Origin: Actinomycetota bacterium
GTDB lineage: Bacteria; Actinomycetota; Acidimicrobiia; Acidimicrobiales; Aldehydirespiratoraceae
Direction: 5' to 3'
NCBI GenBank assembly: GCA_039193795.1
Contig: JBCCWI010000011.1
Location: 796 to 64,795 of the forward strand
Length of the DNA: 64,000 bases
Both the position numbers and the translations under genes were made by a program. Within the stretch, counting starts at the first letter, position 1. Every line of letters starts with the position of its first letter. Of this stretch, positions 18,548 to 63,339 are shown piece by piece. The notes beneath the pieces are model-generated. The model saw only the letters and a program-made list of their open reading frames with translations. It was not told the DNA's origin and did not search any database.

Positions 18548-19096
18548 TCAGCGTGTCGCCTCGACGGCGGCGATGATCTCGTCGACGGCGGGTCGGTCGT
18601 CGGGGCCGGCGCCCCAGAAGCCCCACGCGAGCGTGCCGTCGGGACCGATCACCATGTCGCCACCGAGTTGCAGGGTGTCCTCGGTCGGCCGGGCGAGGTC
18701 ACGCCAGCCGCCATCGGCGAGCAGCTGGACGTAGCGACGGGCCGCCCGCCATCCCCAGACGCGGGTGATCGAGCCCCGCCCGAACCCATAGGCGCGGTAC
18801 GCCCGCCGGTCGGGATCGGTCAGCACCGGGAACGGGAGCATGGTGCGGATGATGTGATCCGACAGGTTCGCCGGATCGGTGAAGGTCACGAGCACGACCG
18901 TCGTGTCCGGTCCGAGATCGTCGAGCCGGTCGCGCACGGCGACGGCATGAGCCGTGCACGGGAGTCAATGGATGTGACGGTGGAAGATGACGACCACGGT
19001 CGAGCCCTGCTGATCGGTGAGTCGCCACGGCTCGCCATCGCCGTCGATGAGTTCGAGCGGTGGTGTGGGATCCCCGATGATCGGTCGAGTGGTCAT
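18548..19096 (-). CDS. PRX_like2 / AhpC-TSA-type thioredoxin-fold redoxin with in-frame UGA (candidate selenocysteine, U44) in a U-L-P-C motif
   Basis: Track ORF 18548..18937 lacks the family's redox motif. The same frame upstream from ATG 19094..19096 reads MTTRPIIGDPTPPLELIDGDGEPWRLTDQQGSTVVVIFHRHIH-TGA(18965..18967)-LPCTAHAVAVRDRLDDL... Downstream family motifs: FPVLTDPDRRAYRAYGF and LGGDMVIGPDGTL. Confidence 0.65.
18931..18960 (-). promoter_or_regulatory. SECIS-like hairpin directly 3' of the in-frame UGA
   Basis: The mRNA reads UGA CUCC then CGUGCACGGC-[UCAUGCCGUC]-GCCGUGCGCG. This is a 10-bp stem including one G.U. The loop starts 15 nt after the UGA. A mutually exclusive inner hairpin, ACGGC-UCAU-GCCGU, is also possible. 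Confidence 0.4.
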
Positions 19097-19200
19097 CGCT
19101 GCGCATCATGCCGTGCCCGGCGTCTTGAGCGGTCCCGGCCGGCCACGTACCGTTGGGACGCAGACCGTGTGGAGCGGCGAACCGAACGGAAGGGGATCCG

Positions 19201-20445
19201 ATGTCGGTCGATCATCGCAGCCGACGCCACGAGGATGTGGCCGATCTCGACGCGCTCGCCGCGTTCGATGAGTACATCCCCGACGCGATCGATCGCCACG
19301 GCGAGCTCGCAGCATGTGGGGTCGCCTCCAAGGGCCTGGCCCCGCTCGGCTTCGACCTCGGCGACCATCAGGCGACCCTCGTCGTCGACGGCGAGACGCT
19401 CGTGCTCGTCGACGGGCTCGAGCACGCAGGCGTCGTCGCTCACCTCCCCGCCGATGCGCTCTCCGATCTGCTCCAGGATCGCCAGTCGACCATGGGGCTG
19501 GCGATGACCGCCCGGGTCAAGATCGAGCGGGGCTCGCTCGACGACTGGATCCGCTGGGAACCGGCGTTGCGGGCGCTCCTCGACGGCCGCGCCGTGCACG
19601 AGTCGGGCGCCGTTGCGATGGTCGATGGCGACGGGGACCCCCTCGACCTCGACCGACGCTTCACCCTCGAGGACGATCGCGACGAGATGCGACACTTCCT
19701 CACCGAGGCGGGGTTCCTGCATCTCACCGGCGTGTTCGATCCCGACGAGATGGCCCGGATCGGGCACGACATCGACGAGTCGATCGCAGCCGCCGCCGAC
19801 GGCGATCCCGAGTACTGGTGGTGCACCAACAGCGACGGCGAGCAGGTCGCGGTCCGCAGCCTCAACTTCCAGGAGAAGTCCGAGGCCGTCCGTGCGGCGC
19901 TGACCGACGAACGGCTGCTCTGGTTGGGGGAACTGACCGGCGACGCCCACCGGGCCCCCACCACCTGTGAAGGGCTGGTCAAGCCCCTCGACATCGTGCA
20001 GGGCCTGTCGGATCTGCCGTGGCACAAGGACTGCGGGCAGGGGCTGCACAGCTACATGTGCAACAGCCTGACCGTCGGGATCTCCGTGACGGGCGCCGAT
20101 CGGGTCAGCGGCGCCCTCGGCGTGATCCCCGGGAGCCATCGCGCCAACACGGTCGCCTCGATGCGCGACCGGGACCTCGACCTGCCGAGCCGACTGCTCG
20201 AGACCACGACCGGCGACATCACCGTGCACTGCAGCGACACGCTGCATCGGGCGTACCCGCCCTCCGCACACCCCCGCAAGGTCGTCTACACCAGCTTCCG
20301 TCTCGCACCGCTGGACGGTGACGAGGAGAAGCCAAACCCCCGCTACAGCCGGTCGGCGCGCAGCGAGCTCACGAGTGTGCAGGACCGGATCGCCGCAGCG
20401 GACAACGCCGCCGCCGACAACCGGTACGTCCCGAGCAACGGGTGA
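19201..20445 (+). CDS. Phytanoyl-CoA dioxygenase (PhyH) family Fe(II)/2-oxoglutarate oxygenase with an N-terminal SCP2-like domain
   Basis: ATG at 19201 preceded by GGAAGGGGA. C-terminal half has LSDLPWHKDCG (HxD) and DITVHCSDTLHRAYP. The N-terminal half (...TMGLAMTARVKIERGSLDDWIRWEPAL) resembles the SCP2 sterol-carrier fold. Confidence 0.7.
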   Translation: MSVDHRSRRHEDVADLDALAAFDEYIPDAIDRHGELAACGVASKGLAPLGFDLGDHQATLVVDGETLVLVDGLEHAGVVAHLPADALSDLLQDRQSTMGLAMTARVKIERGSLDDWIRWEPALRALLDGRAVHESGAVAMVDGDGDPLDLDRRFTLEDDRDEMRHFLTEAGFLHLTGVFDPDEMARIGHDIDESIAAAADGDPEYWWCTNSDGEQVAVRSLNFQEKSEAVRAALTDERLLWLGELTGDAHRAPTTCEGLVKPLDIVQGLSDLPWHKDCGQGLHSYMCNSLTVGISVTGADRVSGALGVIPGSHRANTVASMRDRDLDLPSRLLETTTGDITVHCSDTLHRAYPPSAHPRKVVYTSFRLAPLDGDEEKPNPRYSRSARSELTSVQDRIAAADNAAADNRYVPSNG

Positions 20446-20499
20446 TTTTCTCGCGGGCTCGCGACGGAACCCCCCACCGTCGTTCGTTGGACGGGGTGT

Positions 20500-21027
20500 A
20501 TGGCTGCCGCACACGACGTTCCGATGGGTGATCCGACTCGCCTGTCGGAGATCTACGACGATGCCGTCGACGAGGTGTTCCGATATCTCCGGGCGCGCTG
20601 CGGCTCGGCAGTCCTCGCCGAGGAGCTGACCTCCGCGACCTTCGTGCAGGCCGCACTCGAGACGTCGCGTGGAACGGTGCCGGACCTCTCGGTTCGGTGG
20701 CTGGTCACCGTCGCCCGTCACAAGCTCGTCGACCACTGGCGCCGCGAGGCGATGGCCGACCGCAAGCTGGTGCTACTCGAAGGCGGCCGCATCGACACGG
20801 TCGACCCGTGGAACGCAGTGCTCGACGAAGCCCGCGCCCGACAGGTGCTGCTCGACATCGCCCCGACCTACCGCGCCGTGTTGACCCTGCGGTATCTCGA
20901 CGATCTGAGCGTGCCCGAGTGCGCCGAGCAACTCGGTAAGTCCGTCCACGCGACCGAGAGCGTGCTCGCGCGAGCCCGCAACGCCTTCCGAACCGCCTAC
21001 GAGCAGACCGGAGGTCATGATGACTGA
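20500..21027 (+). CDS. ECF-type RNA polymerase sigma-70 family factor
   Basis: 175 aa. EELTSATFVQAAL...WLVTVARHKLVDHWRR (region 2). YRAVLTLRYLDDLSVPECAEQLGKSVHATESVLARARNAFR (region 4). Confidence 0.8.
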   Translation: MAAAHDVPMGDPTRLSEIYDDAVDEVFRYLRARCGSAVLAEELTSATFVQAALETSRGTVPDLSVRWLVTVARHKLVDHWRREAMADRKLVLLEGGRIDTVDPWNAVLDEARARQVLLDIAPTYRAVLTLRYLDDLSVPECAEQLGKSVHATESVLARARNAFRTAYEQTGGHDD

Positions 21028-22015
21028 CCCGCTCCGCGACCTGAACCCGCCCGAGGCCGTCGACTCGCCGAGCCCGGGCTTCGTGGAACGCCTGCGGGCC
21101 CGCGTCCATGCGATCGAGGCGCGAGCGGACCGTGCGCCGCAGGGTTGGCACCTCGCCCAACTCAACCTCGGGGTGTTCAAGGCACCGCTCGACGCCCCGG
21201 AGATGGCGCCGTTCGCCGCGGCCCTCGATCGCATCAACGCGATCGCCGACGAGTCGCCCGGGTTCGTGTGGCGCCTCACCGACGACGACGGGGGACCGTC
21301 GAGCAATGTCGAGGTCCCGGGATCCGACGATCCGCTGCTCGCGTCGAACCTGTCGGTGTGGCGCGACTACGACTCGCTGCGGGAGTTCATGTATCGCACC
21401 GACCACGCGTCGTACCTCCGCCGTCGAGCCGAGTGGTTCGAGCGGGAGTCGATCCCGATGGTGGTCGGCTGGTGGGTGCCCGCCGGAACCGTTCCCACGC
21501 TCGATGAGGCGCTGGACCGCCTCGAACACCTGCGCCGTGAGGGCCCGTCTGCGGCGGCGTTCCCGCTCACCCGCACCATTCCCGATCCCCCGTCCACCGC
21601 GACCAACCAGGAGGTACCCGCCATGGGTCAGGTCTTCATCCCGTATCTCACCGTCGGCGACAGTCGTGCGGCGCTCCAGTTCTACGGCGAGGTGTTCGGC
21701 GCCGAGCGCTCCGGCGAACTCTTCGAGATGGACGATGGCCGGATCGGCCACGCCGAGATGACGATCGGCGATCAGGTCTTCTACATGGCCGACGAGTTCG
21801 CCGAGATGCAGCTGCACGCGCCGACGGCGCACGGCGGCAACTCGGTCTCGTTGGTGATCCATGTCGAGGACTGCGACGCCGTCTACGAACACGCGCTCCT
21901 CGCCGGTGCGACCGGCGAGCGCCCCCCGGCCGATCAGCACGGCTTCCGGTCCGGATGGTTCGTCGACCCCTGGGGCCACCGCTGGTCGCCGACCAGCGCC
22001 GCCACCGGCGCCTGA
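21017..22015 (+). CDS. Fusion protein: DUF3291-like domain + VOC/glyoxalase (PhnB-like) domain
   Basis: 332 aa; overlaps the sigma gene by 11 nt. The N-terminal half is paralogous to ORF 60377..60826 (LAQLNLG..., WRLTDDDG..., SVWRDYDSLREFMYRTDHASYLRRRAEWFE..., WWVPAG). The C-terminal half reads IPYLTVGDSRAALQFYGEVFGAE...GHAEMTIGDQVFYMADE...DPWGHRW. Confidence 0.7.
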   Translation: MMTDPLRDLNPPEAVDSPSPGFVERLRARVHAIEARADRAPQGWHLAQLNLGVFKAPLDAPEMAPFAAALDRINAIADESPGFVWRLTDDDGGPSSNVEVPGSDDPLLASNLSVWRDYDSLREFMYRTDHASYLRRRAEWFERESIPMVVGWWVPAGTVPTLDEALDRLEHLRREGPSAAAFPLTRTIPDPPSTATNQEVPAMGQVFIPYLTVGDSRAALQFYGEVFGAERSGELFEMDDGRIGHAEMTIGDQVFYMADEFAEMQLHAPTAHGGNSVSLVIHVEDCDAVYEHALLAGATGERPPADQHGFRSGWFVDPWGHRWSPTSAATGA

Positions 22016-22060
22016 CCTCAGCCGTCGAGACGGTGGGGCCGTGAACGGGCGGTCATCGCC

Positions 22061-23215
22061 CTACGAGGCGGCCTCGACCGCCGCCTTGATCGCATCGCAG
22101 GTTCGCTGCATGTTGGCGCGGAGTTGCTTGCGGCGGCCGTTGATGACGGCCGCCGGGTTGTCCGAGTCGGCGGCGATGCCGACGAGGAGGTTGTTCTCCG
22201 TGCCGATCTCCATCGAGAACCGCAGGCGGATGCCGACACCCTGATCCATGATCTCGAACCGCCAGCGTCCCCCGGGTGACGCGGGATCGACGGTCGACCA
22301 CTCGAAGACGCGGCCCTCCTCGTAGGCGGTCACGTGGTTCTGCAGCGACCATTCCATGTCGCCCAGCTTGTTGTGCCCGGTGAACGTCGCCCCCAGGCCG
22401 CGCTCGTCGGAGTCCCATTCGGCGCCCTGGGTCTCGTCGCTCACCCCGACCGGGAAGCCGATGTCGCTCACGAACGGCCAGACCGTGCGCGGCGATGCCT
22501 CGATGTCGACCTCGGCCACGACCCCTTGGCCGTCGTTGAAGGACGTGCCACCGTCCTCGGACGCCCGAGCCCGGGTGAAGCCCCAACGATCGAAGTAGGT
22601 GATCTGCTCGGCCGGCCGGCGAGGTGCGGGCCGGAACTCGCTGCCCTTCGTGTACGCGACGGGGAAGGTCACGATCGTCGTGACGCCGTCGGGAATCGCC
22701 AGGATCCCGGCGAGCTCGTCGACGCTCGCGTTGAGCAGGGTGGTCCACGTGCTGCCGAGGCCCCGGGAGCGCAGGGCGAGGTTGAAGCTCCAGGCCGACT
22801 GGATGACCGAGTCGAAGAGGCCGGGGCGGCCCGAGTCGTCGTGGATGCCCCAGATGGCGGCGATCACGAGCACCGGTGCCTTGGCGAAGTTCTCCACCAG
22901 GTAGGCGCTCGAGTTGAACACCTTCTCCTTGCCGTGGCCCGTGCCCTCGAGTCGTTCGGAGACGCGCGTCATGAACTCGCCGTTGCGGGCGTAGATCTCG
23001 CCGAGCCGCTGCTTCGTCGCCTCGTCGCGCACCACGATCCAGCGGCGGCTGGCGTCGTTGCCGCCACTCGGCGCCTGTTCGGCGAGATCGATGCAGTCGA
23101 ACAGCACCTGGTCCTCGACCGGACGCTCGAAGTCGAGCCGTTTGCGCACCGATCGGGTCGTGGTCAGGAGGCGGTCGATCTGATCGAGATCGAATCCGGC
23201 GTCGTTGGTGGTCAT
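22061..23215 (-). CDS. Fusion protein: nitroreductase family domain + SRPBCC (START/polyketide cyclase-like) domain
   Basis: Start MTTNDAGFDL at 23215. N-terminus: LLTTTRSVRKRLDFERPVEDQVLFDCIDLAEQAPSGGNDASRRWIVV. The C-terminal ~150 aa (VVAEVDIEASPRTVWPFVSDIG...GRWRFEI...) has an SRPBCC-like pattern. Confidence 0.65.
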   Translation of the reverse strand: MTTNDAGFDLDQIDRLLTTTRSVRKRLDFERPVEDQVLFDCIDLAEQAPSGGNDASRRWIVVRDEATKQRLGEIYARNGEFMTRVSERLEGTGHGKEKVFNSSAYLVENFAKAPVLVIAAIWGIHDDSGRPGLFDSVIQSAWSFNLALRSRGLGSTWTTLLNASVDELAGILAIPDGVTTIVTFPVAYTKGSEFRPAPRRPAEQITYFDRWGFTRARASEDGGTSFNDGQGVVAEVDIEASPRTVWPFVSDIGFPVGVSDETQGAEWDSDERGLGATFTGHNKLGDMEWSLQNHVTAYEEGRVFEWSTVDPASPGGRWRFEIMDQGVGIRLRFSMEIGTENNLLVGIAADSDNPAAVINGRRKQLRANMQRTCDAIKAAVEAAS

Positions 23216-23240
23216 CGGGAATCCTCGTCGGGTGTCGGGG

Positions 23241-23981
23241 TCAGCCCTGGTGGGCTCGTGCGGCCTTGGCCAGGGTGCGGAGATCAGCACGTTCGTCGTC
23301 GGTCAAGACGTCGAGATCGGCGGCGTGGAGCTGGTCGGTGACCGTCTCCACGGCCTCCCGGGCGTCGCCGAGGCCGCTCACGTCGGGATAGGGCTCGGGC
23401 CAGCCGAACATCTTGGCGTTCCACTCGCCGGCGGGACCCGACAGGATCGCCTCCAGCGGGCCGAGGCCGGCGGCCTGGACTGCGACACAGTGCCGACTGA
23501 ACCGCAGCTCGCGCATCACCTGGGCGAGCTGGAACGTCCGGGCCGGGCCGGGCGCGTCGGGCAGCGGCATGTCGCGCCAACCGACGAAGAGGGGCGCGCC
23601 GTTGGGCGACGCCTGAGCCACGACCTTCTCCATGATCTCTCCGAGGCGTTCGACCCCATCGAGCCCCTCGAGCTTGGCCGCGCCCCACTCCTGACAGATC
23701 GTGGTGTAGATCGCGGCCCCCTCGCGAGGGGTCATCGCCGCCCGCCCGGCGTCGACCATCGTGCGCATCGTGGTGGGCTCCCAGAAGAAGGCGGCCCCGA
23801 CCACCGCATCGACCGGACAGTCGCCGAGCACGCCGAGCCGACCGACCGCATAGCCGCCGAGCCCCTCGGCCTGCAGCCCGAGCTCGGCGGATCGTCGGAA
23901 CGTCGACTCGTCCATCAACCAGGCCATCGCGAGCATGCCGATCGAGCCGCGCATGCTGCGGGCGACGGTGAGACTGTCCAT
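23241..23981 (-). CDS. Conserved hypothetical helical protein (actinobacterial type)
   Basis: Only the last 246 aa of ORF 23241..25157 look like real protein: MDSLTVARSMRGSIGMLAMAWLMDESTFRRSAELGLQAEGLGGYAVGRLGVLGDCPVD... The ATG is at 23979..23981. The upstream part is low-complexity and antisense to the next gene. Confidence 0.55.
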   Translation of the reverse strand: MDSLTVARSMRGSIGMLAMAWLMDESTFRRSAELGLQAEGLGGYAVGRLGVLGDCPVDAVVGAAFFWEPTTMRTMVDAGRAAMTPREGAAIYTTICQEWGAAKLEGLDGVERLGEIMEKVVAQASPNGAPLFVGWRDMPLPDAPGPARTFQLAQVMRELRFSRHCVAVQAAGLGPLEAILSGPAGEWNAKMFGWPEPYPDVSGLGDAREAVETVTDQLHAADLDVLTDDERADLRTLAKAARAHQG

Positions 23982-24009
23982 GGCGTTCTCCTCGTGACGC
24001 ACCGACCCG

Positions 24010-26430
24010 ATGCGGCGGCCCCACGTTTGCAGGCCCGCCGCCGTCGGGCCAGCCCACGATCGGTCGCCGGGCGGTGGTGGAGTGCGATACACAGTCGTCG
24101 TGTCGAATCGATCTCGGAGCATCGTGTCGTGGGTCGCGTTCGGGCTGGCGTTCGTGGTGGCCCTGGCCGCTGCGCCGGTGCTGTACGTCTCCACCGTGAT
24201 CGAGGAGGAGGACGCCTTCGTCTCGCTCACCGATGCGGTGATCGACCATCCCGACGTCCGCAGCGCGCTGGCCACCGAGGCGACCAACCTGACCTTCGAC
24301 GTGCTCGAAGCCGATGAGCTCGTCGCCGATCTGCTCCCTGAGCAGACACGGTCGATCGCCGTTCCGCTGACCCGGATCGCTGCCAACCAGGTCACCGATG
24401 CCGCCTTCGTGGTGCTCGACACGCCCGTCGGCGTCGACGCTCGACGCGCCGCGGTCCGCGAGCTCCACCGCCAGTTCCTGGCCGACGACGACTCCCTCGT
24501 CATCGACTTGCGCGCCGTGCTGGTTCGCACCGCTCGCGAGCTCGGTGGGCCGGCGGTCGGCGCCGGAGCCGCCAAGTTGGTCGCCGACACCGAGACCGGA
24601 CGCTTCGTCATCGTCGACGAAGGATCCTCGGAGCAGGATCTGCTCGCTGCGGTCCGTGCCATCCCCGTACTCGGGGTGGCGCTGTTCCTCGTCGCCTTCG
24701 TCCTGTGGGCACTCGGGGTCCTGGTCGCGCCCGATCGCCGGGCCGCGCTCATCCGGGCTGCGGTGCTCAACGCCATCGCGTCCGTCGTCGCGATCGTCAT
24801 CGTGGCGATCGCCCTGTACGGCGTGCTCGGGATGATCGGGGAGGGTTCGCCGTCGGCGTTCGCGGTCGCCGAGGTCGTCACCCAGGACTTCATCCGGCTC
24901 CAGTGGGGGACCATCCTGTCGTCGTTGGCGGTCGCGCTCGCCGCCATGCTCCTCGGTGATCGCGTCGCTGCGGTCGCGCTGCGGCGCCTGCCCGGCGAGC
25001 TCTGGCGGCGCTCGCCCGATCGCTGGCACACGATCGCCGACATCATCGGCGACAACGCCGCCCTGGCACGGATCGTCGTGTGGGCGATGGGCGCGCTCAC
25101 GCTGGTCGGTTGGCGCAACCCGACCGTGCGCGTGGTGCTGACCGTCGTCGTGCTCACCGGCGCCGCCCACGGGGTGATCTGGCTGCTGACCGCGGCCAGC
25201 CCGCTCGCCGCGCGGGCGCGCGCTCGGCTCGGCGCGCCCGGGACCTATGTGGACCCGACGAGTTCACGAGCCCGCCGGCTTCGGCTCAACGCGGCCGGCA
25301 CCGTCGCGGTGATCGCGGTGTTCTGGCCTGCGTGGAGCCGTGACGTGTTCATCACCTTGTTCGTGGCACTGGCCGTCGTGTTCGTGCTGATCGACGTCCG
25401 CACCGCCTGGACGACGGCCCGGGCGGCGGACCGGCTCGCCGTCGCCGATGTGGCCGACGAGGGCTGGTCGCGTCGACGCAGCCTCATGGTCGCGTTCGGC
25501 GTCTCGCTCGCGCTCGTCGTCGTCGGTGCGCTCTTCACCGGCTCCGCCGACGATCGGGTGGCGGCGAGCACCGGCTGCAACGGCGCCGACGAACTGTGTG
25601 ATCGAGCGATCGACGAGATCGTGTTCGCCGGTTCGCACAACGCGATGTCGTCGACCGATCTCGGTTGGCAACTCGCCATGCAGACGGGCGACATCGTGAC
25701 CCAGCTCGACCACGGTGTTCGCGCCCTCCTCATCGACGCCCTCTATTGGCGGGCCGAGGGGGTGGTCGAAGGCGGCGACGACGCGGCCGCCGCTGCGGTG
25801 ATCGAGGCGTCGCTGTCCAACGACGAGCCGCGGGCGGGCACCTGGTTGTGCCACGGATTCTGCGCCCTCGGTGCCACCGACCTCACCGCCGGCCTCGCCG
25901 ACATCTCGCTGTGGCTCGATGCCAACCCGCGCGAAATCCTGCTCATCATCGTGCAGGACGAGATCTCCACGCCGGATCTCGAGGCCGCGTTCGAGGCGAG
26001 CGGGCTCCGAGACCATGTGCACATCCATGAGCCGGGTACGGCCTGGCCCACCCTCGGGGCGCTCATCGACGCCGACGAACGGGTGCTCGTGTGGGGTGAG
26101 AACGGTGGTAGCCCCGACAGCTGGTTCCAGAACGTCTGGGACACCGATTTCACCGAGACGCCCTTCGCCTTCGGCCTGCGCAGCGACTTCTCCTGCGCTC
26201 CGAATCGAGGCGACGACGCGAACGATCTCTTCCTCATCAATCATTGGCTCACCAACGGCATCCCGGTGCGGGAGATCGCGTCGTCGGTCAACAGCCGTGA
26301 GGCCCTGCTCGAACGCGTCGCGGATTGTGAGGCGGAGCGCGGGCGTCGGCCCACGATCCTCGCCGTGGACTTCGTCGAGACCGGCGATCTCGTCGCGACC
26401 GTCGCCGAGCTGAACGAGGTGGACGGTTGA
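24010..26430 (+). CDS. Polytopic membrane protein with a C-terminal PLC-like phosphodiesterase (PI-PLC X-domain-like) domain
   Basis: 806-aa ORF; the start is uncertain. Several TM segments. C-terminal domain: CDRAIDEIVFAGSHNAMSS...LDHGVRALLIDALYW...WLCHGFC...LLIIVQDE...FLINHW. Confidence 0.55.
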   Translation: MRRPHVCRPAAVGPAHDRSPGGGGVRYTVVVSNRSRSIVSWVAFGLAFVVALAAAPVLYVSTVIEEEDAFVSLTDAVIDHPDVRSALATEATNLTFDVLEADELVADLLPEQTRSIAVPLTRIAANQVTDAAFVVLDTPVGVDARRAAVRELHRQFLADDDSLVIDLRAVLVRTARELGGPAVGAGAAKLVADTETGRFVIVDEGSSEQDLLAAVRAIPVLGVALFLVAFVLWALGVLVAPDRRAALIRAAVLNAIASVVAIVIVAIALYGVLGMIGEGSPSAFAVAEVVTQDFIRLQWGTILSSLAVALAAMLLGDRVAAVALRRLPGELWRRSPDRWHTIADIIGDNAALARIVVWAMGALTLVGWRNPTVRVVLTVVVLTGAAHGVIWLLTAASPLAARARARLGAPGTYVDPTSSRARRLRLNAAGTVAVIAVFWPAWSRDVFITLFVALAVVFVLIDVRTAWTTARAADRLAVADVADEGWSRRRSLMVAFGVSLALVVVGALFTGSADDRVAASTGCNGADELCDRAIDEIVFAGSHNAMSSTDLGWQLAMQTGDIVTQLDHGVRALLIDALYWRAEGVVEGGDDAAAAAVIEASLSNDEPRAGTWLCHGFCALGATDLTAGLADISLWLDANPREILLIIVQDEISTPDLEAAFEASGLRDHVHIHEPGTAWPTLGALIDADERVLVWGENGGSPDSWFQNVWDTDFTETPFAFGLRSDFSCAPNRGDDANDLFLINHWLTNGIPVREIASSVNSREALLERVADCEAERGRRPTILAVDFVETGDLVATVAELNEVDG

Positions 26431-26506
26431 GCCGCAGCCATCCCTGAGAGTCGTGTCTCGCCCCGATACCGTGGCTGCCACGGAGCGCGGCGAAAGGCGG
26501 GCCGGC

Positions 26507-27610: not shown

Positions 27611-27682
27611 CGGGCTCACCGGGCGGGCGGTGGTCGCCGCAACGATCCGCTGACAGGTGGCGGCGGGATCTAGGGTCGGGAC

Positions 27683-30854: not shown

Positions 30855-30913
30855 GACGCCGACGCTACCGGCCGACTCGATCGCGTTGAAGTCCGTGGGG
30901 GCTCGCCGGGGTA

Positions 30914-31840: not shown

Positions 31841-31855
31841 CGTAGGCTGCGCGCC

Positions 31856-40342: not shown

Positions 40343-40345
40343 CGC

Positions 40346-50435: not shown

Positions 50436-50451
50436 GCACCGAGCCTATTCG

Positions 50452-50463
50452 TTTGGTACCGAA
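50452..50463. promoter_or_regulatory. Candidate operator, site A (TTTGGTACCGAA; 11/12 match to the palindrome TTCGGTACCGAA)
   Basis: Lies in the 79-bp divergent region between the ADC-family operon (start 50435, -) and the acyl-CoA dehydrogenase (start 50515, +). Locally AT-richer context ctaTTCGTTTGGTACCGAATgattc. Confidence 0.4.
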
Positions 50464-50514
50464 TGATTCAACCGAGCGGGTTCCCGACGGTCGGTTCTGG
50501 AAGGATGCGAGACG

Positions 50515-53373: not shown

Positions 53374-53404
53374 CCTAGGCCCGGAGCGCCGGCCGCGCAG
53401 ATCG

Positions 53405-53416
53405 TTCGGTACCGAA
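53405..53416. promoter_or_regulatory. Candidate operator, site B (perfect 12-bp palindrome TTCGGTACCGAA)
   Basis: Lies in the 71-bp divergent region between the MarR gene (start 53373, -) and the FAH-family gene (start 53445, +). Confidence 0.45.
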
Positions 53417-53444
53417 TCATCTCGGTTTGGGCTACGGTCGGACC

Positions 53445-55788: not shown

Positions 55789-55803
55789 GGGTTCGAAGGC
55801 CGG

Positions 55804-56583
55804 TCAGTACAGCGAACCGCCGCCGCCCGACTCGACTTCGCCGCGTGCGGCAGCGAGCGAGGCTCGGGCGCCGTCGCCCAGTGCGAGCTGGTCGGCGATG
55901 GCGGTGACCATCCGCATGCCCTGCGCGAAGCGCTTGGGCACGAGCGGGCCGGTGGCGTGGCAGCCTGGCATCACCCCGGCCTTCTGACACTCGGCGATGA
56001 TCGTGGCGTAGGCCTCGTCGAAGGCCGGCTCACCGTCGTTGTTCGCCGGCGGAAGATCGAGGGTCAGCGACAGGTCGGCGGGGCCGACGTAGACCGCGTC
56101 GATACCAGGCACCTCGAGGATCGCCGGCAGGTTCTCGACCGCCTGCTTGGTCTCGATCATCGGGATGACAGCGACGTTCTCGCGGGCCCACTCGACATAG
56201 TCGGGTCGCCGGATCCGGCCGACCGTCGGACCGAACGAGCGCGAACCTTCCGGGGCGTACCGGCACGCCTTCACCGCGGCCTCGGCCTCCTCGGGGGTGT
56301 TGACCATGGGGATGATGACCCCCTCGGCGCCGGCGTCGAGCATCTTGCCGATGATGCCGGGCTCGTTCCACGGCACCCGCACGATCGGGATCGATCCACC
56401 GTGTTCGATCGCTCGGATCAGTTCCACCGTGATCTGGTACTCGACGGTGCCGTGCTGGGTGTCGACACAGACATAGTCGAAGCCGGCCCGGGCCATCACC
56501 TCCGCCGAAAGTGTCGCCGGGATCGAGAGCCAACCGCCGACGACGTTCTCACCGTCGTTCCACATCTGCCGAAGCGTTCGCAT
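55804..56583 (-). CDS. HpcH/HpaI family aldolase
   Basis: 259 aa. [56 protein letters not shown] and [14 protein letters not shown]. Confidence 0.85.
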
Positions 56584-56612
56584 GCCCGTTGTCTAGCGCA
56601 TACGTTTCGGCG

Positions 56613-57491
56613 ATGAGCGCCCTCGACCCCACGCCCCTCACGAAGTCCTACGCCACCGTCGCCGGCAAGCGGATGGCCTACCACGAGCGGGGTGAGGGCG
56701 ACGCGATCGTCTTCCTCCACGGCAACCCGACCTCGTCGTACCTGTGGCGCAACATCATTCCCCACGTCGAGTCGTCGGGTCGCTGCATCGCGCCCGATCT
56801 GATCGGGCAGGGCGACAGCGACAAGCTCGACGACACCGGGCCCGACGCCTACACCTTCGTCCAGCACCGCGAGTATCTCGACGGTCTGCTCGAACAGCTC
56901 GATCTCGGTGATGCGGTCACGCTCGTCATCCACGACTGGGGTTCCGCGCTCGGCTTCGACTGGGCGAACCGACACCGCGACCGGGTGAAGGGGATCTGTT
57001 ACATGGAGGCGATCGTTCGGCCCGTCACCTGGGCGCAGTGGCCCGAGGCGGCCCGGGGGATCTTCCAGGGGTTCCGCTCCGACGCAGGCGAGGACATGGT
57101 GATCGGCAAGAACCTGTTCGTCGAGGCGGTGCTGCCCGCGTCGATCCTGCGCGACCTCACCGATGACGAGATGAACGAGTATCGGCGCCCGTTCGTCGAG
57201 CCCGAGCACCGGCGCCCGACCCTCACCTGGCCCCGCCAGATCCCGATCGAGGGCGAGCCGGCCGACGTCGTCGAGATCGCCCAGTCCTACGCCGACTGGC
57301 TCTCGACGAGCGACGTGCCGAAGCTCTTCGTCGACTGTGATCCCGGGGCCATCCTCATCGGCGAGACCCGCGAGTTCTGCCGGACCTGGCCGAACCAGAC
57401 CGAAGTCCGGGTGTCGGGCAATCACTTCGTGCAGGAGGACTCCCCCCACGAGATCGGCGAGGCGCTGGCCGCCTGGCTGGACGGGATCTGA
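56613..57491 (+). CDS. Haloalkane dehalogenase (alpha/beta hydrolase, HLD-II type)
   Basis: ATG at 56613 ([13 protein letters not shown]). [19 protein letters not shown], nucleophile HDWGSALGF and a C-terminal [10 protein letters not shown]. Confidence 0.85.
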
Positions 57492-57509
57492 CCCGCCGTC
57501 CTCGCCTGT

Positions 57510-58814
57510 TCAGTGGTAGGGCAGGTACTGATCGCGCTCCCAGTCGGTGAGCTCGTCGCCGTCGACGTGCTCGCCGACCGCCGCGATGTAGCGCTCCCAC
57601 TCGGCGTCCTTGTTCACCAAGAAGTTGGCACAGACGTCTGCACCGACGGCCTCCTGGAGGCGTGTGTCGGCACGGAGATCGACGAGCGCGTCCCGGAGGT
57701 TCTCGGCGGAGTGGACGTCGGTGTTCACGTTCTCGAAGCCGTCCTCCACCATCGGGTCGGGACACGGGAGGTCGTCGACGACCCCCAACCGTGCCGCCTG
57801 GAGCACGGTGGTGACCGCGAGGTGGATGTTCGCCGAACCGTCGGGCAGCCGGTTCTCGATTCGTGTTCCGGGGCCGCCCACCTCGGGGATGCGGTTGCCG
57901 GCGCACCGGTGTTCATAGCCCCAGTTGGCCCAGTAGCCGTTGAGTTCGCCCGGCTGGAGTCGGCGATAGCCGGTGATGGTCGGCACGCACAGCGCGGTCA
58001 TGCCGCGATGGTGATGGGTGAGGCCCGCGAGACACTGCTTGGCCAGCGGGGAGAGGTCGCCATCGGCGACCAATGCGTTGTCGCCGTTCTCGTCGACGAG
58101 GGAGACGTTGACGTGGATCCCCGAACCGGACGAGCCGGCGAACGGCTTGCCGAGGAAGGTCAGGTCGAGGCCCTGCTTGAGCGCGGTCTCGCGGGCCAGG
58201 ACCCTGAACAAGAACGCGTCGTCGGCCGCCTTCAGCGCATCGTCGTACTCGAGTGTGAGCTCGAACTGGGCCTCGTCGAACTCGGCGTTGATGGACTCGG
58301 GCTTGAATCCACAGGCCTCGGCGGTCCAGGCGATGTCGGCGATGACGCCCTCGGGATCGGCGCCGGGTCCCGTCGCGTACACGAACGAACGGGGTGTCTC
58401 CCACCGTTTCCACCCGCCTGCGCCGTCGGGCTCCATCACATAGGCCTCGAGTTCGATGCCCACCTTGACGCCGAATCCGAGCTCGGCCCAATCGGCCACC
58501 GCCTGTTGCAGCGCGTACCGCGATGAGAAGGTGTACGGCGCGCCCTCGAAATCGAGGTGGGCGATCGCGACGCCGGTGCGGTCGTCCTCCCAGCTGGGCC
58601 GGAGGGTGTCGCGCTCCATCGTGGCCCAGACGTCCTTCAGTCCCTCGAACAACGATGCGCCGGGTGCGGGCACCAGGTCTCGGTCATAGGCCGTACCGAA
58701 GACGGTCACACAGTGTCCGGTGCCTCGCTCCGCGATGCGCGGTGGCAGGTACTTGCCGCGGGCGAGGCCCAGGTGGCACGGCCAGAGGATGCGGTAGCGG
58801 TCGTAGTCGGTCAC
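57510..58814 (-). CDS. Glutamine synthetase family protein (gamma-glutamyl-amine synthetase-like, GlnA-paralog type)
   Basis: 434 aa, GTG start. GIELEAYVM, NAEFDEAQFELTL, GSGIHVNVSL and NRIP...RIENRLPDGSANIHL. Confidence 0.85.
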   Translation of the reverse strand: MTDYDRYRILWPCHLGLARGKYLPPRIAERGTGHCVTVFGTAYDRDLVPAPGASLFEGLKDVWATMERDTLRPSWEDDRTGVAIAHLDFEGAPYTFSSRYALQQAVADWAELGFGVKVGIELEAYVMEPDGAGGWKRWETPRSFVYATGPGADPEGVIADIAWTAEACGFKPESINAEFDEAQFELTLEYDDALKAADDAFLFRVLARETALKQGLDLTFLGKPFAGSSGSGIHVNVSLVDENGDNALVADGDLSPLAKQCLAGLTHHHRGMTALCVPTITGYRRLQPGELNGYWANWGYEHRCAGNRIPEVGGPGTRIENRLPDGSANIHLAVTTVLQAARLGVVDDLPCPDPMVEDGFENVNTDVHSAENLRDALVDLRADTRLQEAVGADVCANFLVNKDAEWERYIAAVGEHVDGDELTDWERDQYLPYH

Positions 58815-58830
58815 GCTGCGACCCTACTCG

Positions 58831-58842
58831 TTCGCTACCGAA
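58831..58842. promoter_or_regulatory. Candidate operator, site C (TTCGCTACCGAA; 11/12 match to TTCGGTACCGAA)
   Basis: Lies in the 56-bp divergent region between the GS-like gene (start 58814, -) and the gamma-glutamyl hydrolase gene (start 58871, +). It shares the left flank CTCGTTCG and the right flank T with sites A and B. Confidence 0.4.
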
Positions 58843-58870
58843 TGGTCCTGTCCGACTAGCCTGCGACACC

Positions 58871-59587
58871 ATGAAGCCGCTGATCGGGATCGTCGGTCGC
58901 CGCAAGAAGGGCCACGACATCGCCGCGATGCCGGAGTCGCTGCACCACCTCGATCTCGAGCTGTATTTCAGCGACTACAGCCGGGGGGTTCTGGCCGCCG
59001 GTGGCCTCCCGGTCCACATCCCGATCGAGGCCGATCCGGCCGCGATCGCCGCACGCATCGACGGTGTGCTGCTGTCCGGTGGGGCCGACGTCGCACCGGC
59101 GCTCTACGGCCAAGACGCCGAGACCGACCTGTACCCGCCCGAAGCCGACCGCGACCGGATGGAGATGGCCCTGATGGATGCCGCGGTCGACACCGGCATG
59201 CCGGTGCTCGGCATCTGCCGGGGCCTGCAGATCGCCAACGTGCATGGTGGCGGGTCACTGCATCAGCACGTGCCGGAGCAGGCGCGCTACGACATCGCGC
59301 CCACGGCGGTGGTCGACGCCGTCCGTTTCGAGTCCGATTCGGTGCTCGGTCGCCTGTACGGCGAACACCGCGACGTCAACACCTTGCACCACCAGACCGT
59401 CGACCGGGTCGCCGCCGACTACCGGGTCACCGCCTGGGGAGCCGACGGCGGCGTCGAGGGTCTCGAACACGCGGAGCTCCCCATCGTGTCCGTGCAGTGG
59501 CACCCGGAGATGATGACCGAGCGCGACACCGACCCGGTCTTCGGCTGGTTGGTCGAGGCTGCGAAGCTGTACGCCGCGGCGCGCTGA
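58871..59587 (+). CDS. Gamma-glutamyl-gamma-aminobutyrate hydrolase-like peptidase C26 (class I amidotransferase fold, PuuD-like)
   Basis: ATG at 58871 (MKPLIGIVGRR). GVLLSGGADVAPALYG, PVLGICRGLQIANV and VQWHPE. Confidence 0.85.
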   Translation: MKPLIGIVGRRKKGHDIAAMPESLHHLDLELYFSDYSRGVLAAGGLPVHIPIEADPAAIAARIDGVLLSGGADVAPALYGQDAETDLYPPEADRDRMEMALMDAAVDTGMPVLGICRGLQIANVHGGGSLHQHVPEQARYDIAPTAVVDAVRFESDSVLGRLYGEHRDVNTLHHQTVDRVAADYRVTAWGADGGVEGLEHAELPIVSVQWHPEMMTERDTDPVFGWLVEAAKLYAAAR

Positions 59588-59603
59588 TTGGTACCGTCGC
59601 GCC

Positions 59604-60380
59604 ATGGCGTACGAACGGATCACGGTCGAGCGCGACGGCGACGTCGTCACCCTCACCCTCGCCAACCCCGAGAAGCGCAACGTGTTGGCGCTCGACACGA
59701 TGCAGGAGATCACCGCGGCGTTGACCGAGATCGGTGACACCGACGCGCTCGGCGTCATCGTCGCGGCCGAAGGCCCGGTGTTCTCCGCCGGCCACAACTT
59801 CGGCGACATGCTCGGTCAGTCCGAGGAGGACGTGCGGGCACTCTTCGACGTCTGCACCGAGATGATGACCCTCATCCAGGCACTGCCCCAGGTCGTGATC
59901 GCCCGGGTCCACGCCCTGGCGACGGCCGCCGGTTGCCAGTTGGTCTCGATGTGTGACCTGGCGGTCGCCGGTGCGTCGGCGGCGTTCGCTGCGCCCGGGG
60001 GCAAAGGCGGGTTGTTCTGCCACACGCCGATGGTCGGCATCTCCCGGGCCATCGGTCGCAAGCGAGGCCTCGAGCTCGCCTTGATCGGGGATCCGATCGA
60101 CGCGCACACCGCCGCCGACTGGGGGCTCGTGAACCGGGTTGTCCCCGACGATCGGCTGGTGGACGAGACGGCGGAGCTGATGGCTCGCGCCACCCGCGGT
60201 TCGGCCACGTCCAAGGCGCTCGGGAAGCAGACGTACTACGCCCAGATCGACATGGCGCAGAGCGATGCCTACGAGTTCGCGACCGGCGTGATGTCGGCCG
60301 GCGCGGTCTCACCCGACGGGCAGGAGGGCATCGCATCCTTCGTGGAGAAGCGGCGACCGGAGTTCGGTCCTCGGGTGTGA
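59604..60380 (+). CDS. Enoyl-CoA hydratase/isomerase (crotonase) family protein
   Basis: 258 aa. VVTLTLANPEKRNVL...VIVAAEGPVFSAGHNF...ATAAGCQLVSMCDLAV. Confidence 0.85.
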   Translation: MAYERITVERDGDVVTLTLANPEKRNVLALDTMQEITAALTEIGDTDALGVIVAAEGPVFSAGHNFGDMLGQSEEDVRALFDVCTEMMTLIQALPQVVIARVHALATAAGCQLVSMCDLAVAGASAAFAAPGGKGGLFCHTPMVGISRAIGRKRGLELALIGDPIDAHTAADWGLVNRVVPDDRLVDETAELMARATRGSATSKALGKQTYYAQIDMAQSDAYEFATGVMSAGAVSPDGQEGIASFVEKRRPEFGPRV

Positions 60381-60826
60381 GCTGGCAGCTCGCCCAGTTC
60401 AACGTCGCGACGGCGAAGTTCGACGACGACGATCCGCGACTGGCCGAGTTCATCGACAACCTCGATCGGCTCAACACCCTCGGCGACGACGCGCCCGGTT
60501 CGGTGTGGCGCTTCCAGAGTGACTCCGGCAACTCCGTGGACGTGAAGGCGTACGAGGATCCGCGGATCCTGCTCAACCTCACGGTGTGGGAGGACGTGAA
60601 GTCGCTCTGGGACTATGTCTACAAGACCGATCACGTCGACTTCCTGCGACGCCGCACCGAGTGGTTCGAGGTCGAGTCGCAACCCTTCGTCGTGATGTGG
60701 TGGGTCCCGGCCGGCCATCGACCCACCCCGGCGGAAGGCGTCGAGCGTCTCGAACACCTGCGGGCGAACGGGCCGACGCCCTACGCCTTCTCGTTCCGTG
60801 ACAACTACGAGCCACCGTCCCGGTGA
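60377..60826 (+). CDS. DUF3291-like protein (stand-alone paralog of the N-domain of 21017..22015)
   Basis: 149 aa. WQLAQFNVA, WRFQSDSG, TVWEDVKSLWDYVYKTDHVDFLRRRTEWFE, MWWVPAGHRPT and ERLEHLRANGPTPYAF. 4-nt overlap with the crotonase gene. Confidence 0.7.
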   Translation: MSWQLAQFNVATAKFDDDDPRLAEFIDNLDRLNTLGDDAPGSVWRFQSDSGNSVDVKAYEDPRILLNLTVWEDVKSLWDYVYKTDHVDFLRRRTEWFEVESQPFVVMWWVPAGHRPTPAEGVERLEHLRANGPTPYAFSFRDNYEPPSR

Positions 60827-60829
60827 CGG

Positions 60830-62347
60830 TCAGTCGATGATGTTGTCGTACACCCAGTCGTTGTAGGTGACGCCCTCCGGCAGCACATGTCGGGTCGCCT
60901 GATCGGCGGGTGCCTGGCGCCACTCGGGGGCCGTGCCTCCGGCGTAGAGCTCACGCAGGAAGGTGCGTCGACGCTGGCTCTCCTCGACGAGCGGGCCGAG
61001 GGTTTCGAGGTCCCACCGGTCCTCGACGAGGGCGTTGAGTTCGGTCTGTGCCTCGGCGTAGGCGGCGTCGTCGGCGAGGTTGGTCAGCTCATGGGGGTCG
61101 GTGCGGAGGTCGAAGAGCTGGGCCGGATCGCAGCCGCTCCACACGTACTTCATCGCGCCGCGCTTGGCCATGAGGATCGGGGCGGTGGCGCCCTCGGACA
61201 GGTTCTCGCCGAACACGACGTCACGATCGCTGGTGAGCAGCGACGTGCCCTCGATCGGCTCGACGACGTGGGTCCCGCCGGCCAGCTCGACGAACGTCGG
61301 CAGCAGGTCGGCGAGCGAGACGTTGCGGCTGCTTCGCCCCGGGTCGATCCCAGCGCCGGCGACGAGCAGCGGGATGCGCGACGACGGCTCGAAGAACGAG
61401 CGCTTGTACCAGAGGCCCCGTTCGCCGAGGAAGTCGCCGTGGTCGGTCGAGAACACGATGACCGTGTTGTCGGCCATGCCCGACTCTTCGAGTGCACCGA
61501 GGACTTCCCCGACGATGTCATCGCAGTAGCTCACCGAGCCGTAGTAGCCGTGGCGAGCGGTGCGGATCTGCTTGGCGGTCGGCACGAAGTGTTCGAGGCC
61601 GGTCTGTTGCAGCAGTCGCAGGCTGTACGGGTCCTGCTCGTCGAGTCGTCCGACGGCCGGCATGTCGATCTCGTCGTGGTCGTAGCGCGCCCAGTGTTCG
61701 TGGTCGCACTGGTACGGATCGTGGGGGTGGGTGAACGACAGCGTGAGGTGCCATGGCTGGCCGTCGTCGATGCCGACGCCACGTCCGAGGTCGAAGAGCT
61801 TGCGGCGGGCGCGGTGCAGGACCTCCTCGTCGTAGTCGATCTGCACGTTGCGGGTGACCGGTCCGGCGAGGGTGAACGAACGGGCGTCGTTGCCGTGCTC
61901 CTCGCTGGTGTCGGTCCAGTCACCGGTCCACTGGAAGCTGGCGGGGTAGATGTCGATCGTGAGTCGTTCGTCGAATCCGTGGAGCTGGTCGGCACCGACG
62001 AAGTGCATCTTGCCGACCAGGGCGGTGTGGTAGCCGGCCGCCTTGAGATAGTGCGCGTAGGTCGGATACGAGCTCGGGAACTCCGCGCCGTTGTCGTACG
62101 CGCCGACCTCGGAGGCCAGCCGCCCCGACAGCATCGAGAAGCGGCTCGGCGCGCAGAGGGCGAAGTTCGTGTATGCCGAGTCGAACACGAGTGAGCGTTC
62201 GGCGAGTCCGTCGAGATGCGGTGTCTTCGCGATCGGGTTGCCGTACGCCGGGAGGAACGAGGCGGCGAGCTGGTCGACCTGGATGAACACGATGTTCGGC
62301 TGCGGCACGGCGAGAGTCTGCCGCAGCGAGCCAGTGCGCGCATCCAC
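60830..62347 (-). CDS. betC: Choline-sulfatase
   Basis: 505 aa. The formylglycine motif CAPSR sits in YTNFALCAPSRFSMLSG. Long collinear matches to Sinorhizobium BetC as I recall it: YDNGAEF..S.PTYAHYL..AGY.TAL.GKMHFVG.DQLHGF.ERL..DIYPA.F, SFTHPHDPY and DHGD.LGERGLW.K..FFE.S.R.PL. Confidence 0.85.
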   Translation of the reverse strand: MDARTGSLRQTLAVPQPNIVFIQVDQLAASFLPAYGNPIAKTPHLDGLAERSLVFDSAYTNFALCAPSRFSMLSGRLASEVGAYDNGAEFPSSYPTYAHYLKAAGYHTALVGKMHFVGADQLHGFDERLTIDIYPASFQWTGDWTDTSEEHGNDARSFTLAGPVTRNVQIDYDEEVLHRARRKLFDLGRGVGIDDGQPWHLTLSFTHPHDPYQCDHEHWARYDHDEIDMPAVGRLDEQDPYSLRLLQQTGLEHFVPTAKQIRTARHGYYGSVSYCDDIVGEVLGALEESGMADNTVIVFSTDHGDFLGERGLWYKRSFFEPSSRIPLLVAGAGIDPGRSSRNVSLADLLPTFVELAGGTHVVEPIEGTSLLTSDRDVVFGENLSEGATAPILMAKRGAMKYVWSGCDPAQLFDLRTDPHELTNLADDAAYAEAQTELNALVEDRWDLETLGPLVEESQRRRTFLRELYAGGTAPEWRQAPADQATRHVLPEGVTYNDWVYDNIID

Positions 62348-62373
62348 CCGGCCGTGACCGCTCGGTCAGACGT

Positions 62374-63339
62374 TCACCACTCGAGGCGGCGGACGGAGGC
62401 TCCTTCGGTCGCCGCCTCGAGGAACGCTCTGGCCTCCTCGAGCACGACGCGTTGGCGCTCGGCATCGCCAGGTGGGCCGAGCGGACGGCCGAGGGGTTGC
62501 GGGGTCAGCACGAGTCGAGGGATCGACATCGGGATCATGCGGCCGGCGAACGTCTCCGACGCGATCATGACCGTCGGGATTCCGGCCGCTTCGAGCAGGC
62601 GTGCGACGTGCCCCACGGACACGTGGCAGACCGGTCAAAGGGGGACGAGGAACGCCGCTTCGATCCCGTCGGTCCGGAACTGCTCGACCCACTCGGGGCC
62701 GGTCTTCTTGGTGAGGCGGACCTGTGAGCAGGCGCCGACGAAGGAGAAGGCACCGGCGTACTCGCCGAGCGCGCCGTCGGCGGCCCACGCCTCCATGTGG
62801 TCGATCGGGAGGCCGACGTTGTGGTCGAGCTGCGCCCCTTCGATCGGGTAGCCGCCGTGGCGGACGCGCAGCTGGTCACCCGTCGTGCCCGGAGGGATCG
62901 ACGACAGCGACGGCGCCTCCTTGAGGAAGTCCTGGATGCGTTCGACCGCTTCGTCCTGGGTCATGTCGGCGACGCCGAACGGTTCGGGGTCGTCGCCGTC
63001 GAGGAAGTGGCCGCTCGATGTGACCAGGGCGACCTTACGCTCGGAGAGCGGCGACGACAGCGGGGTGAACGGGGCGTCGTCGTAGCTGAACTGGCCGGGT
63101 TTGTCGTAGGCCCTGACCTGCCAGTCCTTGAGGAAGAGCGCCATCTCCCGAGCTCGTTCGTCGGTGCCGTCGGCGACGGTCACCGCATGACGGATCAGTT
63201 CTTCGAAGAAGGTGGCGGCGTCGGCCTCGTCGAGCGCGGCCAGGAACTTGGCATCGAGGTTGGTGCGGGTGCTGTAGGAGAAGGAGTTCTTGAAGGCCTC
63301 GAACGTCTCCGGTGTCGGCTGGTCCTGCTCATCGCTCAT
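62374..63339 (-). CDS. GrdB/PrdB-family (glycine/sarcosine/betaine/D-proline reductase selenoprotein B-like) protein with in-frame UGA (candidate Sec, about U235) in a U-P-V-C motif
   Basis: Track ORFs 62635..63381 and 62374..62622 are in the same frame, separated only by TGA (62635..62637). The joined reading is ...GIEAAFLVPL-U-PVCHVSVGHVARLLEAAGIPTVMIASETFAGRMIPMSIPRLVLTPQPLGRPLGPPGDAERQRVVLEEARAFL... This parallels the GrdB region around Sec as I recall it (..ILTST-U-GTCTRCGATMVKEIERAGIPVVH....RIVP...PHPLGNP...). The likely start is the ATG at 63339 (MSDEQDQ). Confidence 0.65.
62602..62628 (-). promoter_or_regulatory. SECIS-like hairpin 3' of the in-frame UGA
   Basis: The mRNA reads UGA CCGGUC then UGCCACGUG-[UCCGUGGGG]-CACGUCGCA. 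This gives 8 pairs plus one C.C mismatch. The G-rich 9-nt loop begins 16 nt after the UGA. A shorter alternative is CCACG-UGUC-CGUGG. Confidence 0.35.

Follow-up and report, generated by a model that had tools for sequence, protein, structure and literature searches.

Two redox genes of an Acidimicrobiales genome in which in-frame TGA codons very probably encode selenocysteine

RESULTS

Two reverse-strand genes split by in-frame TGA codons

We analyzed a 64,000-nucleotide (nt) stretch of DNA (positions 796 to 64,795 of contig JBCCWI010000011.1, assembly GCA_039193795.1; hereafter, the window, on contig C11) from a marine-type Acidimicrobiales metagenome-assembled genome (MAG), designated G000 (4.81 Mb in 235 contigs; 69% GC; completeness, 79.6%; contamination, 5.8%). 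Two reverse-strand genes, gene 1 (18548..19096) and gene 2 (62374..63339), each fall into two same-frame pieces when open reading frames (ORFs) are listed under the standard code. The original prediction, made from the window sequence, held that the TGA codons separating these pieces encode selenocysteine (Sec; U). We compared both loci with 60 related genomes of the same order (61 including G000) and searched an evenly drawn phylum set of 401 Actinomycetota genomes (249 genera) for gene-1 homologs and selA. Close relatives are recorded as "uncultured Candidatus Microthrix sp." or "Actinomycetota bacterium" MAGs, and more distant homologs are recorded as Acidimicrobiales bacterium or Acidimicrobiia bacterium.

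Gene 1, a SelL-related-like redoxin

Read through its in-frame TGA (18965..18967, reverse strand) from the ATG at 19094-19096 to the true stop, a TGA at 18548-18550, gene 1 would encode a 182-amino-acid (aa) thioredoxin-fold selenoprotein (MTTRP...VVVIFHRHIH-U-LPCTAHAV...AVEATR) of the AhpC/TSA, SelL-related, peroxiredoxin (Prx)-like kind, with the predicted Sec as residue 44 in the motif FHRHIH-U-LPC. Family matches run across U44, as had been proposed for two in-frame halves of one family: the product matches Pfam AhpC-TSA (PF00578; 61.7 bits against a cut-off of 26; residues 7-109), AhpC-TSA_2 (PF13911; 42.7 bits against 27), and Redoxin. With U replaced by C for scoring, it also matches the NCBIfam model NF040769, "SelL-related redox protein" (116.5 bits against a curated cut-off of 120; E = 9.4e-34), over residues 11-177 and profile positions 3-172 of 173, again spanning U44. 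The nearest structures in the PDB are Bcp/PrxQ peroxiredoxins (E of ~1e-5).

All 18 orthologs of gene 1 in the relatives have one TGA in the same motif, and when the loci were fetched, oriented, and translated, the TGA column was invariant in 19/19 (motif FHRH[IL]x-U-LPC). The phylum set yielded 11 further homologs (35-59% identity), all with an in-frame TGA; in 9 of them, the motif was read directly, and the TGA lies in xxRHxx-U-LxC. Full-length homologs with cysteine (Cys) at exactly the TGA position were also found (P0246, which is 48% identical, and P0258, P0261, P0265, and P0267), with P0246 and others carrying FHRHLA-C-LPC. Nearly all database calls for gene-1 homologs are fragments, chiefly C-terminal pieces of ~127-135 aa, and one 43-aa call ends in ...FHRHIH.

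Eukaryotic SelL carries a UxxU diselenide, whereas gene 1 has UxxC. Gene 1 resembles NF040769 members and the Prx-like UxxC proteins of the ocean selenoproteome in its thioredoxin/AhpC-TSA fold, in the U/C-x-x-C motif placed after an F-x-R-H strand, and in the existence of both Sec and Cys forms (PMC2398784). Judged by family resemblance, gene 1 is most likely a peroxiredoxin-like redoxin of the SelL-related/Prx-like type, which would most likely reduce peroxides or disulfides via a U44-C47 selenenylsulfide.

Operon context was considered as a clue to the function of gene 1 and rejected, as the downstream ECH gene is shared only with the relative G014. The sole recurring neighbor is a PhyH-like dioxygenase gene: five loci within the genus of G000 show it in divergent orientation to gene 1.

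Gene 2, a stand-alone GrdB/PrdB-like protein

Gene 2 runs from the ATG at 63337-63339 to the true stop TGA at 62374-62376, and its read-through product would be a 321-aa stand-alone selenoprotein of the GrdB/PrdB superfamily. Its in-frame TGA (62635..62637, reverse strand) corresponds to predicted residue U235 in the motif LVPL-U-PVCH (...IEAAFLVPL-U-PVCHVSVGHVARLLE...). As predicted, both TGA codons thus sit on a U-x-x-C redox motif, U-L-P-C in gene 1 and U-P-V-C in gene 2. The Pfam GRDB match (PF07355; 39.5 bits against a cut-off of 22; residues 36-232) ends before U235. TIGR04483 (PrdB) spans it (80.9 bits against an equivalog cut-off of 300; residues 90-317), as does the GrdH model (residues 36-287). 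The GrdB and GrdF models also match across U235, far below their cut-offs; the scores against TIGR01917, NF040794, and NF040795 are 31 versus 602, 39.8 versus 800, and 49.4 versus 775 bits, respectively.

The closest orthologs of gene 2 are 92, 87, 78, and 51% identical to it. Among the 60 relatives, 36 genomes contain 68 GrdB-like matches (30-92% identity), and every one (68/68) has an in-frame TGA; in the 20 gene-2 loci that were fetched, the TGA column is invariant (20/20; motif P-x-U-P-x-C). Five full-length Cys homologs (P0009-P0013; 44-54% identical) read LVP[VG]-C-PVCH, so that for this gene, too, the comparison with Cys homologs called for by the original prediction placed Cys at exactly the TGA position. 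Nearly all database calls for gene-2 homologs are fragments, with N-terminal pieces of ~225-240 aa. G000 itself holds three GrdB-like genes, i.e., gene 2 and paralogs on C14 and C18.

The AlphaFold2 model of gene 2 is confident (predicted local distance difference test [pLDDT], 87.4; predicted template modeling score [pTM], 0.86), and in it U235 and C238 open helix 236-251, right behind strand 228-232. A sequence search of the PDB with gene 2 returned no match, and Foldseek found no fold match in the PDB (best E = 0.016; template modeling [TM] score, 0.28).

Gene 2 shares the PF07355 superfamily with PrdB and with GrdB/GrdF/GrdH of Stickland-fermenting anaerobes, and like PrdB and GrdB it has U-x-x-C at the homologous column, with a TGA-encoded Sec and a hairpin directly downstream. 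It differs from them in scoring below every equivalog cut-off and in lacking GrdA and GrdE/PrdA. Profile searches for GrdE/PrdA (PF09338) and for GrdA (PF04723) gave no match in G000 or in 59 of the 60 relatives. The remaining relative, G046, served as a positive control (PF09338 match of 327.6 bits), and the detection of its operon demonstrates that these searches work. No other relative among the 60 has a genuine cluster of the glycine reductase type; that of G046 (contig C77:18472-23294) comprises a GrdE/PrdA-family gene, a GrdB-like gene, and a GrdA gene with its own TGA. With no GrdA, GrdE, or PrdA partner, gene 2 is therefore not a Stickland reductase and stands alone; by its profile scores and its missing partners, it is classified as a member of the PF07355 superfamily and not as a PrdB or GrdB-type equivalog. 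Its counterpart in ocean metagenomes is the abundant "PrdB" class, in which Sec forms predominate (PMC2398784); in the Global Ocean Sampling (GOS) data, this class comprised 235 Sec and 110 Cys forms (PMC2398784). Family resemblance suggests that gene 2 is most likely a selenol/thiol reductase, which would act outside any glycine or proline reductase complex.

The genes around gene 2 gave little clue to its function, and this context was likewise rejected: the downstream sulfatase gene occurs only in the G000 species and its closest relative, and no operon partner is conserved. An acyl-CoA dehydrogenase gene lies upstream in three species. Between this gene and gene 2, ~95-160 nt upstream of the gene-2 start, the window contains a near-perfect 24-nt inverted repeat at 63432-63498 (GGGTGTCGCACCGTAGTGGAACGC...GCGTTCCACTACCGTGCGACACCC; RNA fold of -56.8 kcal/mol). 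Both arms are kept in the orthologous locus of G014, and a similar repeat lies behind a TAG stop at G000:C175:790-880. The repeat in the window may act as a terminator or an operator or may be a repetitive extragenic palindromic (REP)-like element.

Hairpins downstream of the two UGA codons

At 69% GC, single-sequence z-scores are uninformative, and covariation was therefore used as the test for a Sec insertion sequence (SECIS). In the following, hairpin columns are numbered from the U of UGA. For the gene-2 family, RNAalifold returned one hairpin of eight pairs, five of which show compensatory double changes. In gene 2, this SECIS hairpin occupies columns 11-20/26-35 (62603..62627, reverse strand), with the loop CGUGG. 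Its stem is of the type GC..ACGUGU/ACACGU..GC, and the apical loop of the family is CGUGR, with an invariant loop G and U. In the alignment, 95% of the cells are paired, compared with 66% in shuffles and at most 56% in controls in which the hairpin was slid along the sequence; both sides have changed in 42 cells, a level attained by 0/500 shuffles, for which the figure is 13.9. Across homologs, the stem passes from ACGUGUCC/GGGCACGU to ACCAGAC/GUCUGGU to GCGUAC/GUACGC, and the encoded peptide changes too. Since pairing is kept while the peptide changes, coding constraint alone hardly explains the hairpin. Covariation at the gene-2 SECIS is thus strong.

For gene 1, the candidate SECIS is a short hairpin at columns 16-36 (18932..18952, reverse strand; stem 16-23/29-36; loop CGUCG), which was identified by conservation. 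It is paired in 75% of the cells, compared with 67.9% in shuffles (0/500 reach it) and at most 58% in slid controls. One pair covaries (22-30; GC to CG in five sequences), and a distant gene-1 subfamily has a clean hairpin, GCGCACCU-CGUGA-AGGUGCGC. This short hairpin is probably the gene-1 SECIS, with moderate support. A 10-bp hairpin originally proposed for gene 1 was rejected: it is 78% paired across orthologs with only two compensatory cells, and the shorter hairpin is better conserved. Of the earlier description, a hairpin after each TGA was thus confirmed, and the GC-rich hairpin of gene 2 was borne out by its covariation; the specific 10-bp hairpin of gene 1 was not. The apical loop had been placed 15-16 nt after the UGA, which fits the 10-bp hairpin in the gene-1 sequence (15 nt) and not the hairpin of gene 2, where the loop begins 18 nt after the A of UGA. 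An Rfam scan of the window returned no family at the gathering score.

As in the insertion system of the Escherichia coli fdhF type, the gene-2 hairpin starts no more than ~10 nt after the UGA and lies inside the ORF. Further likenesses are the invariant loop G-U (CGUGR) ~18 nt after the UGA and a SelB with a C-terminal extension; the stem sequence, in contrast, is unrelated to that of E. coli fdhF.

Sec machinery elsewhere in the genome

No tRNA was found in the window, and the Sec trait is encoded outside it, as anticipated; the recommended genome-wide search recovered tRNA-Sec, selA, selB, and selD. The tRNA-Sec gene (G000:C160:1480-1571) matches RF01852 with 64 bits (gathering score, 47), is called SeC with anticodon tca by ARAGORN, and has the anticodon loop CUUCAAA and a long variable arm. 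On C2, selA (389.3 bits; cut-off, 267.9) adjoins selB (285.6 bits; cut-off, 242.25), whose product includes the C-terminal domain. The selD gene on C31 (364.9 bits; cut-off, 125) has its own Sec TGA, in GAG-U-GCK. Contigs with machinery or selenoprotein genes have GC contents of 68.7-70.3%, and their tetranucleotide profiles do not stand out from the rest of the bin.

In characterized bacterial SelA, the N-terminal domain is the tRNA-Sec-binding domain. The SelA of G000 (C2:22382-23479), like those of the whole order, matches TIGR00474 only from approximately position 52-71, with ORFs of ~420-450 aa, and its N-terminal domain is therefore divergent; in many other families of the phylum set, SelA matches the model from position 1.

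Every genome of the same family has selA (37/37), as do 51/61 genomes of the order overall and 266/401 genomes (182/249 genera) of the phylum set. The expectation that Sec use is patchy in Actinomycetota is corrected by these counts, which indicate a common trait. Nine of the 10 selA-negative genomes lack any GrdB-like gene, the exception being an 84%-complete MAG. Within the same class, Acidimicrobiia, the Actinomarinales possess Sec machinery and ~5 selenoproteins per genome (bioRxiv 10.64898/2026.04.03.716425). G000 shares with them selA, selB, selD, and tRNA-Sec, and in both cases SelD is in the Sec form and gene callers overlook selenoproteins; G000 differs in its order (Acidimicrobiales), its larger size (bin of ~4.8 Mb), and its selenoprotein genes, which are ~4 times as many.

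In-frame stop junctions across the genome

In long ORFs of G000, 84% of stops are TGA, 14% TAG, and 2% TAA. We counted in-frame stop junctions with a strong coding signal on both sides and found 57 TGA, 29 TAG, and 2 TAA. Without five Sec-type sites, 52 TGA junctions stand against 29 TAG junctions. An ATG lies within 12 codons downstream at 60% of the ordinary TGA junctions, 66% of the TAG junctions, and 0/5 of the Sec-type sites. Because ordinary TGA junctions have a nearby ATG as often as TAG junctions do, they represent gene boundaries, and the genome has no excess of TGA-broken genes. The original prediction had named an excess of TGA-interrupted genes at noncatalytic positions as evidence of decay or assembly error; TGA junctions in G000 behave like TAG junctions. 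It had also stated that the other same-strand neighboring ORFs that were checked are not joined through an in-frame TGA. A strict scan of the window contig adds only one in-frame TGA junction flanked on both sides by coding sequence, at window position 3603 between the genes at 2298-3605 and 3636-5723, which is an ordinary gene boundary.

As a separate observation, TAG accounts for 29/88 junctions between closely packed genes of G000, far above its 14% share of stops. A probable reason is that a gene ending in TGA frequently runs into the following start codon in another frame (ATGA/GTGA). Pyrrolysine was rejected as an explanation, as a downstream ATG is as frequent there as at TGA gene boundaries.

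Weighing the readings of the in-frame TGA codons

Sequence features, the Sec machinery, the conservation of the TGA, the Cys homologs, and the covariation of the gene-2 SECIS were all directly observed, and they make it very probable that both in-frame TGAs are Sec codons in full-length redox proteins. In such a mechanism, SelB-GTP-Sec-tRNA(Sec) would recognize the bacterial SECIS hairpin a few nucleotides past the UGA, within the coding sequence, and SelB would deliver Sec to the ribosome in place of termination; translation would then yield both proteins at full length, each with a U-x-x-C redox pair in which Sec is the attacking residue. Several points weigh against this reading. The source is a fragmented MAG, in which the machinery is linked to the window via binning, composition, and relatives. 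Gene 1 falls 3.5 bits below the curated cut-off of NF040769 and is for that reason named SelL-related-like rather than a certified member. The gene-1 SECIS shows little covariation, the 10-bp hairpin first proposed for it is poorly conserved, and at this GC content the energies of single-sequence folds do not separate the real sequences from shuffles (z = -2.1 and -0.5). The actual insertion of Sec, the chemistry, and the substrates are what we infer, and the biochemical roles assigned to both genes come from family resemblance only.

The fragmentation of the MAG (235 contigs) and its 5.8% contamination, together with the splitting of both genes by public gene callers, would also suit inactivating mutations or sequencing or assembly errors, in which case both genes would be pseudogenes. 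This explanation is effectively refuted by the conservation of the TGA and has only a minute probability: the same TGA occurs at the same catalytic column in every ortholog and paralog examined, across dozens of independent assemblies; coding signal and domain continuity persist on both flanks; and TGA-broken genes are not in excess across the genome (52 TGA to 29 TAG, against stop shares of 84% to 14%). The earlier judgment that two such sites are unlikely to be random pseudogenization holds, given TGA columns kept in 19/19 and 20/20 loci, which come from up to 36 related genomes and share 31-92% identity across the aligned regions. Alternatively, UGA might terminate translation, with the C-terminal piece produced from an internal start, so that each locus would yield two polypeptides forming a split protein without selenium. 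Internal GTG starts do appear in the ORF listings, at 18937 in gene 1 and 62622 in gene 2. However, they lie 9 and 4 codons past the TGA, respectively, and those codons would be lost; the break lands on the catalytic residue and removes it, the Cys homologs are single chains, a covarying hairpin sits directly behind the gene-2 UGA, and the genome has complete Sec machinery. We consider a split protein very unlikely. Alternative meanings of UGA exist in some bacteria, and UGA could be decoded here as Trp, Gly, or Cys under a reassigned code or be read through leakily by a near-cognate tRNA. Nothing specific favors such decoding, which is exceedingly improbable given that TGA is the dominant stop (84% of long ORFs), that a canonical tRNA-Sec and SelA, SelB, and SelD are present, and that the position aligns only with Cys in homologs.

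Further candidate selenoprotein genes in G000

Beyond the two genes of the window, we searched G000 with a motif-aware scan for in-frame TGA, followed by Pfam matching across the TGA; the first two coding-potential filters were too strict and missed gene 1, and they were loosened. The scan identified 17 further TGA sites in classical CxxU, UxxC, or UGSC motifs, including those of FdhA and SelD, and G000 thus has at least 19 selenoprotein genes (17 sites plus genes 1 and 2), or ~20 overall. A single domain spans the TGA in the following groups: (i) an FdhA-type molybdopterin oxidoreductase (C9:43712; CNRT-U-HAPS); (ii) CMD/AhpD-like proteins with CxxU (C5, C22, C51, and C70); (iii) UGSC-family proteins (C18, C54, C61, and C94); (iv) a DsbA-like protein (C61:18922; U-PWC); and (v) AhpC/Redoxin-type proteins (C4, C20 [W-UGC], C26, and C69). 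The GrdB-like paralogs on C14 and C18 were recovered by a homology search reading through the TGA; the Pfam GRDB match of the C14 paralog ends three residues before the TGA, and the C18 piece submitted to Pfam gave no match. One more site, C9:24581 (HHG-U-LFP), is a candidate for the twentieth gene, with weak Pfam support. Two other motif matches were rejected as gene boundaries, namely C57:23415 (dnaN/recF) and C23:1132 (asd/PNPOx). The suspicion that other redox genes of this genome are misannotated in the same way was well founded, with at least 17 more cases and with public calls of homologs that stop or start at the TGA.

Two of these candidates are fusions. The protein at C4 (~6711, reverse strand; 388 aa in total) joins an AhpC/TSA domain (W-U-PPC) to DsbD_N, and at C18 (~23756, forward strand) a UGSC domain (C-U-GSC) is fused to a C-terminal region of ~400 aa without a Pfam match. 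UGSC fusions were also noted in the GOS study (PMC2398784).

Other features of the window

DUF3291-domain and enoyl-CoA hydratase genes (21017-22015 [+], 60377-60826 [+], 17635-18531 [-], and 59604-60380 [+]) lie within ~3 kb of gene 1 and of gene 2, with both kinds near each selenoprotein gene; this may be a coincidence or reflect a shared pathway context. At 13090-16185 (+), the window encodes a 1,031-aa protein in which Pfam recognizes only a BTAD transcriptional-activator domain at the C terminus; the remaining ~880 residues have no family match at E <= 1e-4.

DISCUSSION

Genes 1 and 2 are unannotated members of known families, and their Sec recoding is real but ordinary. Both the mechanism and the families involved are textbook matter or already cataloged; conceptually, nothing here is new, and the result matters mainly as a correction of annotation. 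All of the families found here are in the published marine selenoproteome catalog (PMC2398784), and they also appear in a 2026 review table. NCBI names the fragments [quoted passage not shown] and "AhpC/TSA family protein," and public records of homologs end in ...FLVPL or begin with MRDRLD..., so that the catalytic residue is lost. Read-through annotation of gene 1, gene 2, and ~17 others changes the set of redox proteins predicted for an actinobacterial group that is widespread in the environment. It also places the UGSC, AhpD-like, Prx-like, DsbA, and "PrdB" selenoproteins of the ocean in a specific lineage; ocean metagenome surveys counted these selenoproteins without an actinobacterial assignment (PMC2398784).

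Less expected are the high number of selenoprotein genes in G000 and the orphaned, stand-alone GrdB-like family. Surveys have defined selenoprotein-"rich" organisms as those with six or more selenoproteins, and these were mostly anaerobic Deltaproteobacteria, Clostridia, and Synergistetes (PMC5029168); the "actinobacterial" example of 2006, with 12 selenoproteins, is Symbiobacterium. Our search of the literature library at hand found no publication on the selenoproteomes of Acidimicrobiales. We lean slightly toward the view that the family of G000 represents an undescribed selenoprotein-rich lineage of Actinomycetota, with its three stand-alone GrdB/PrdB-like proteins forming a partner-independent enzyme class. 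If so, this class would have a substrate unrelated to Stickland chemistry. The stand-alone GrdB/PrdB-like family is abundant, consists largely of Sec forms, and has a confident fold but no relative in the PDB and no known partner; it could reasonably be chosen for functional study.

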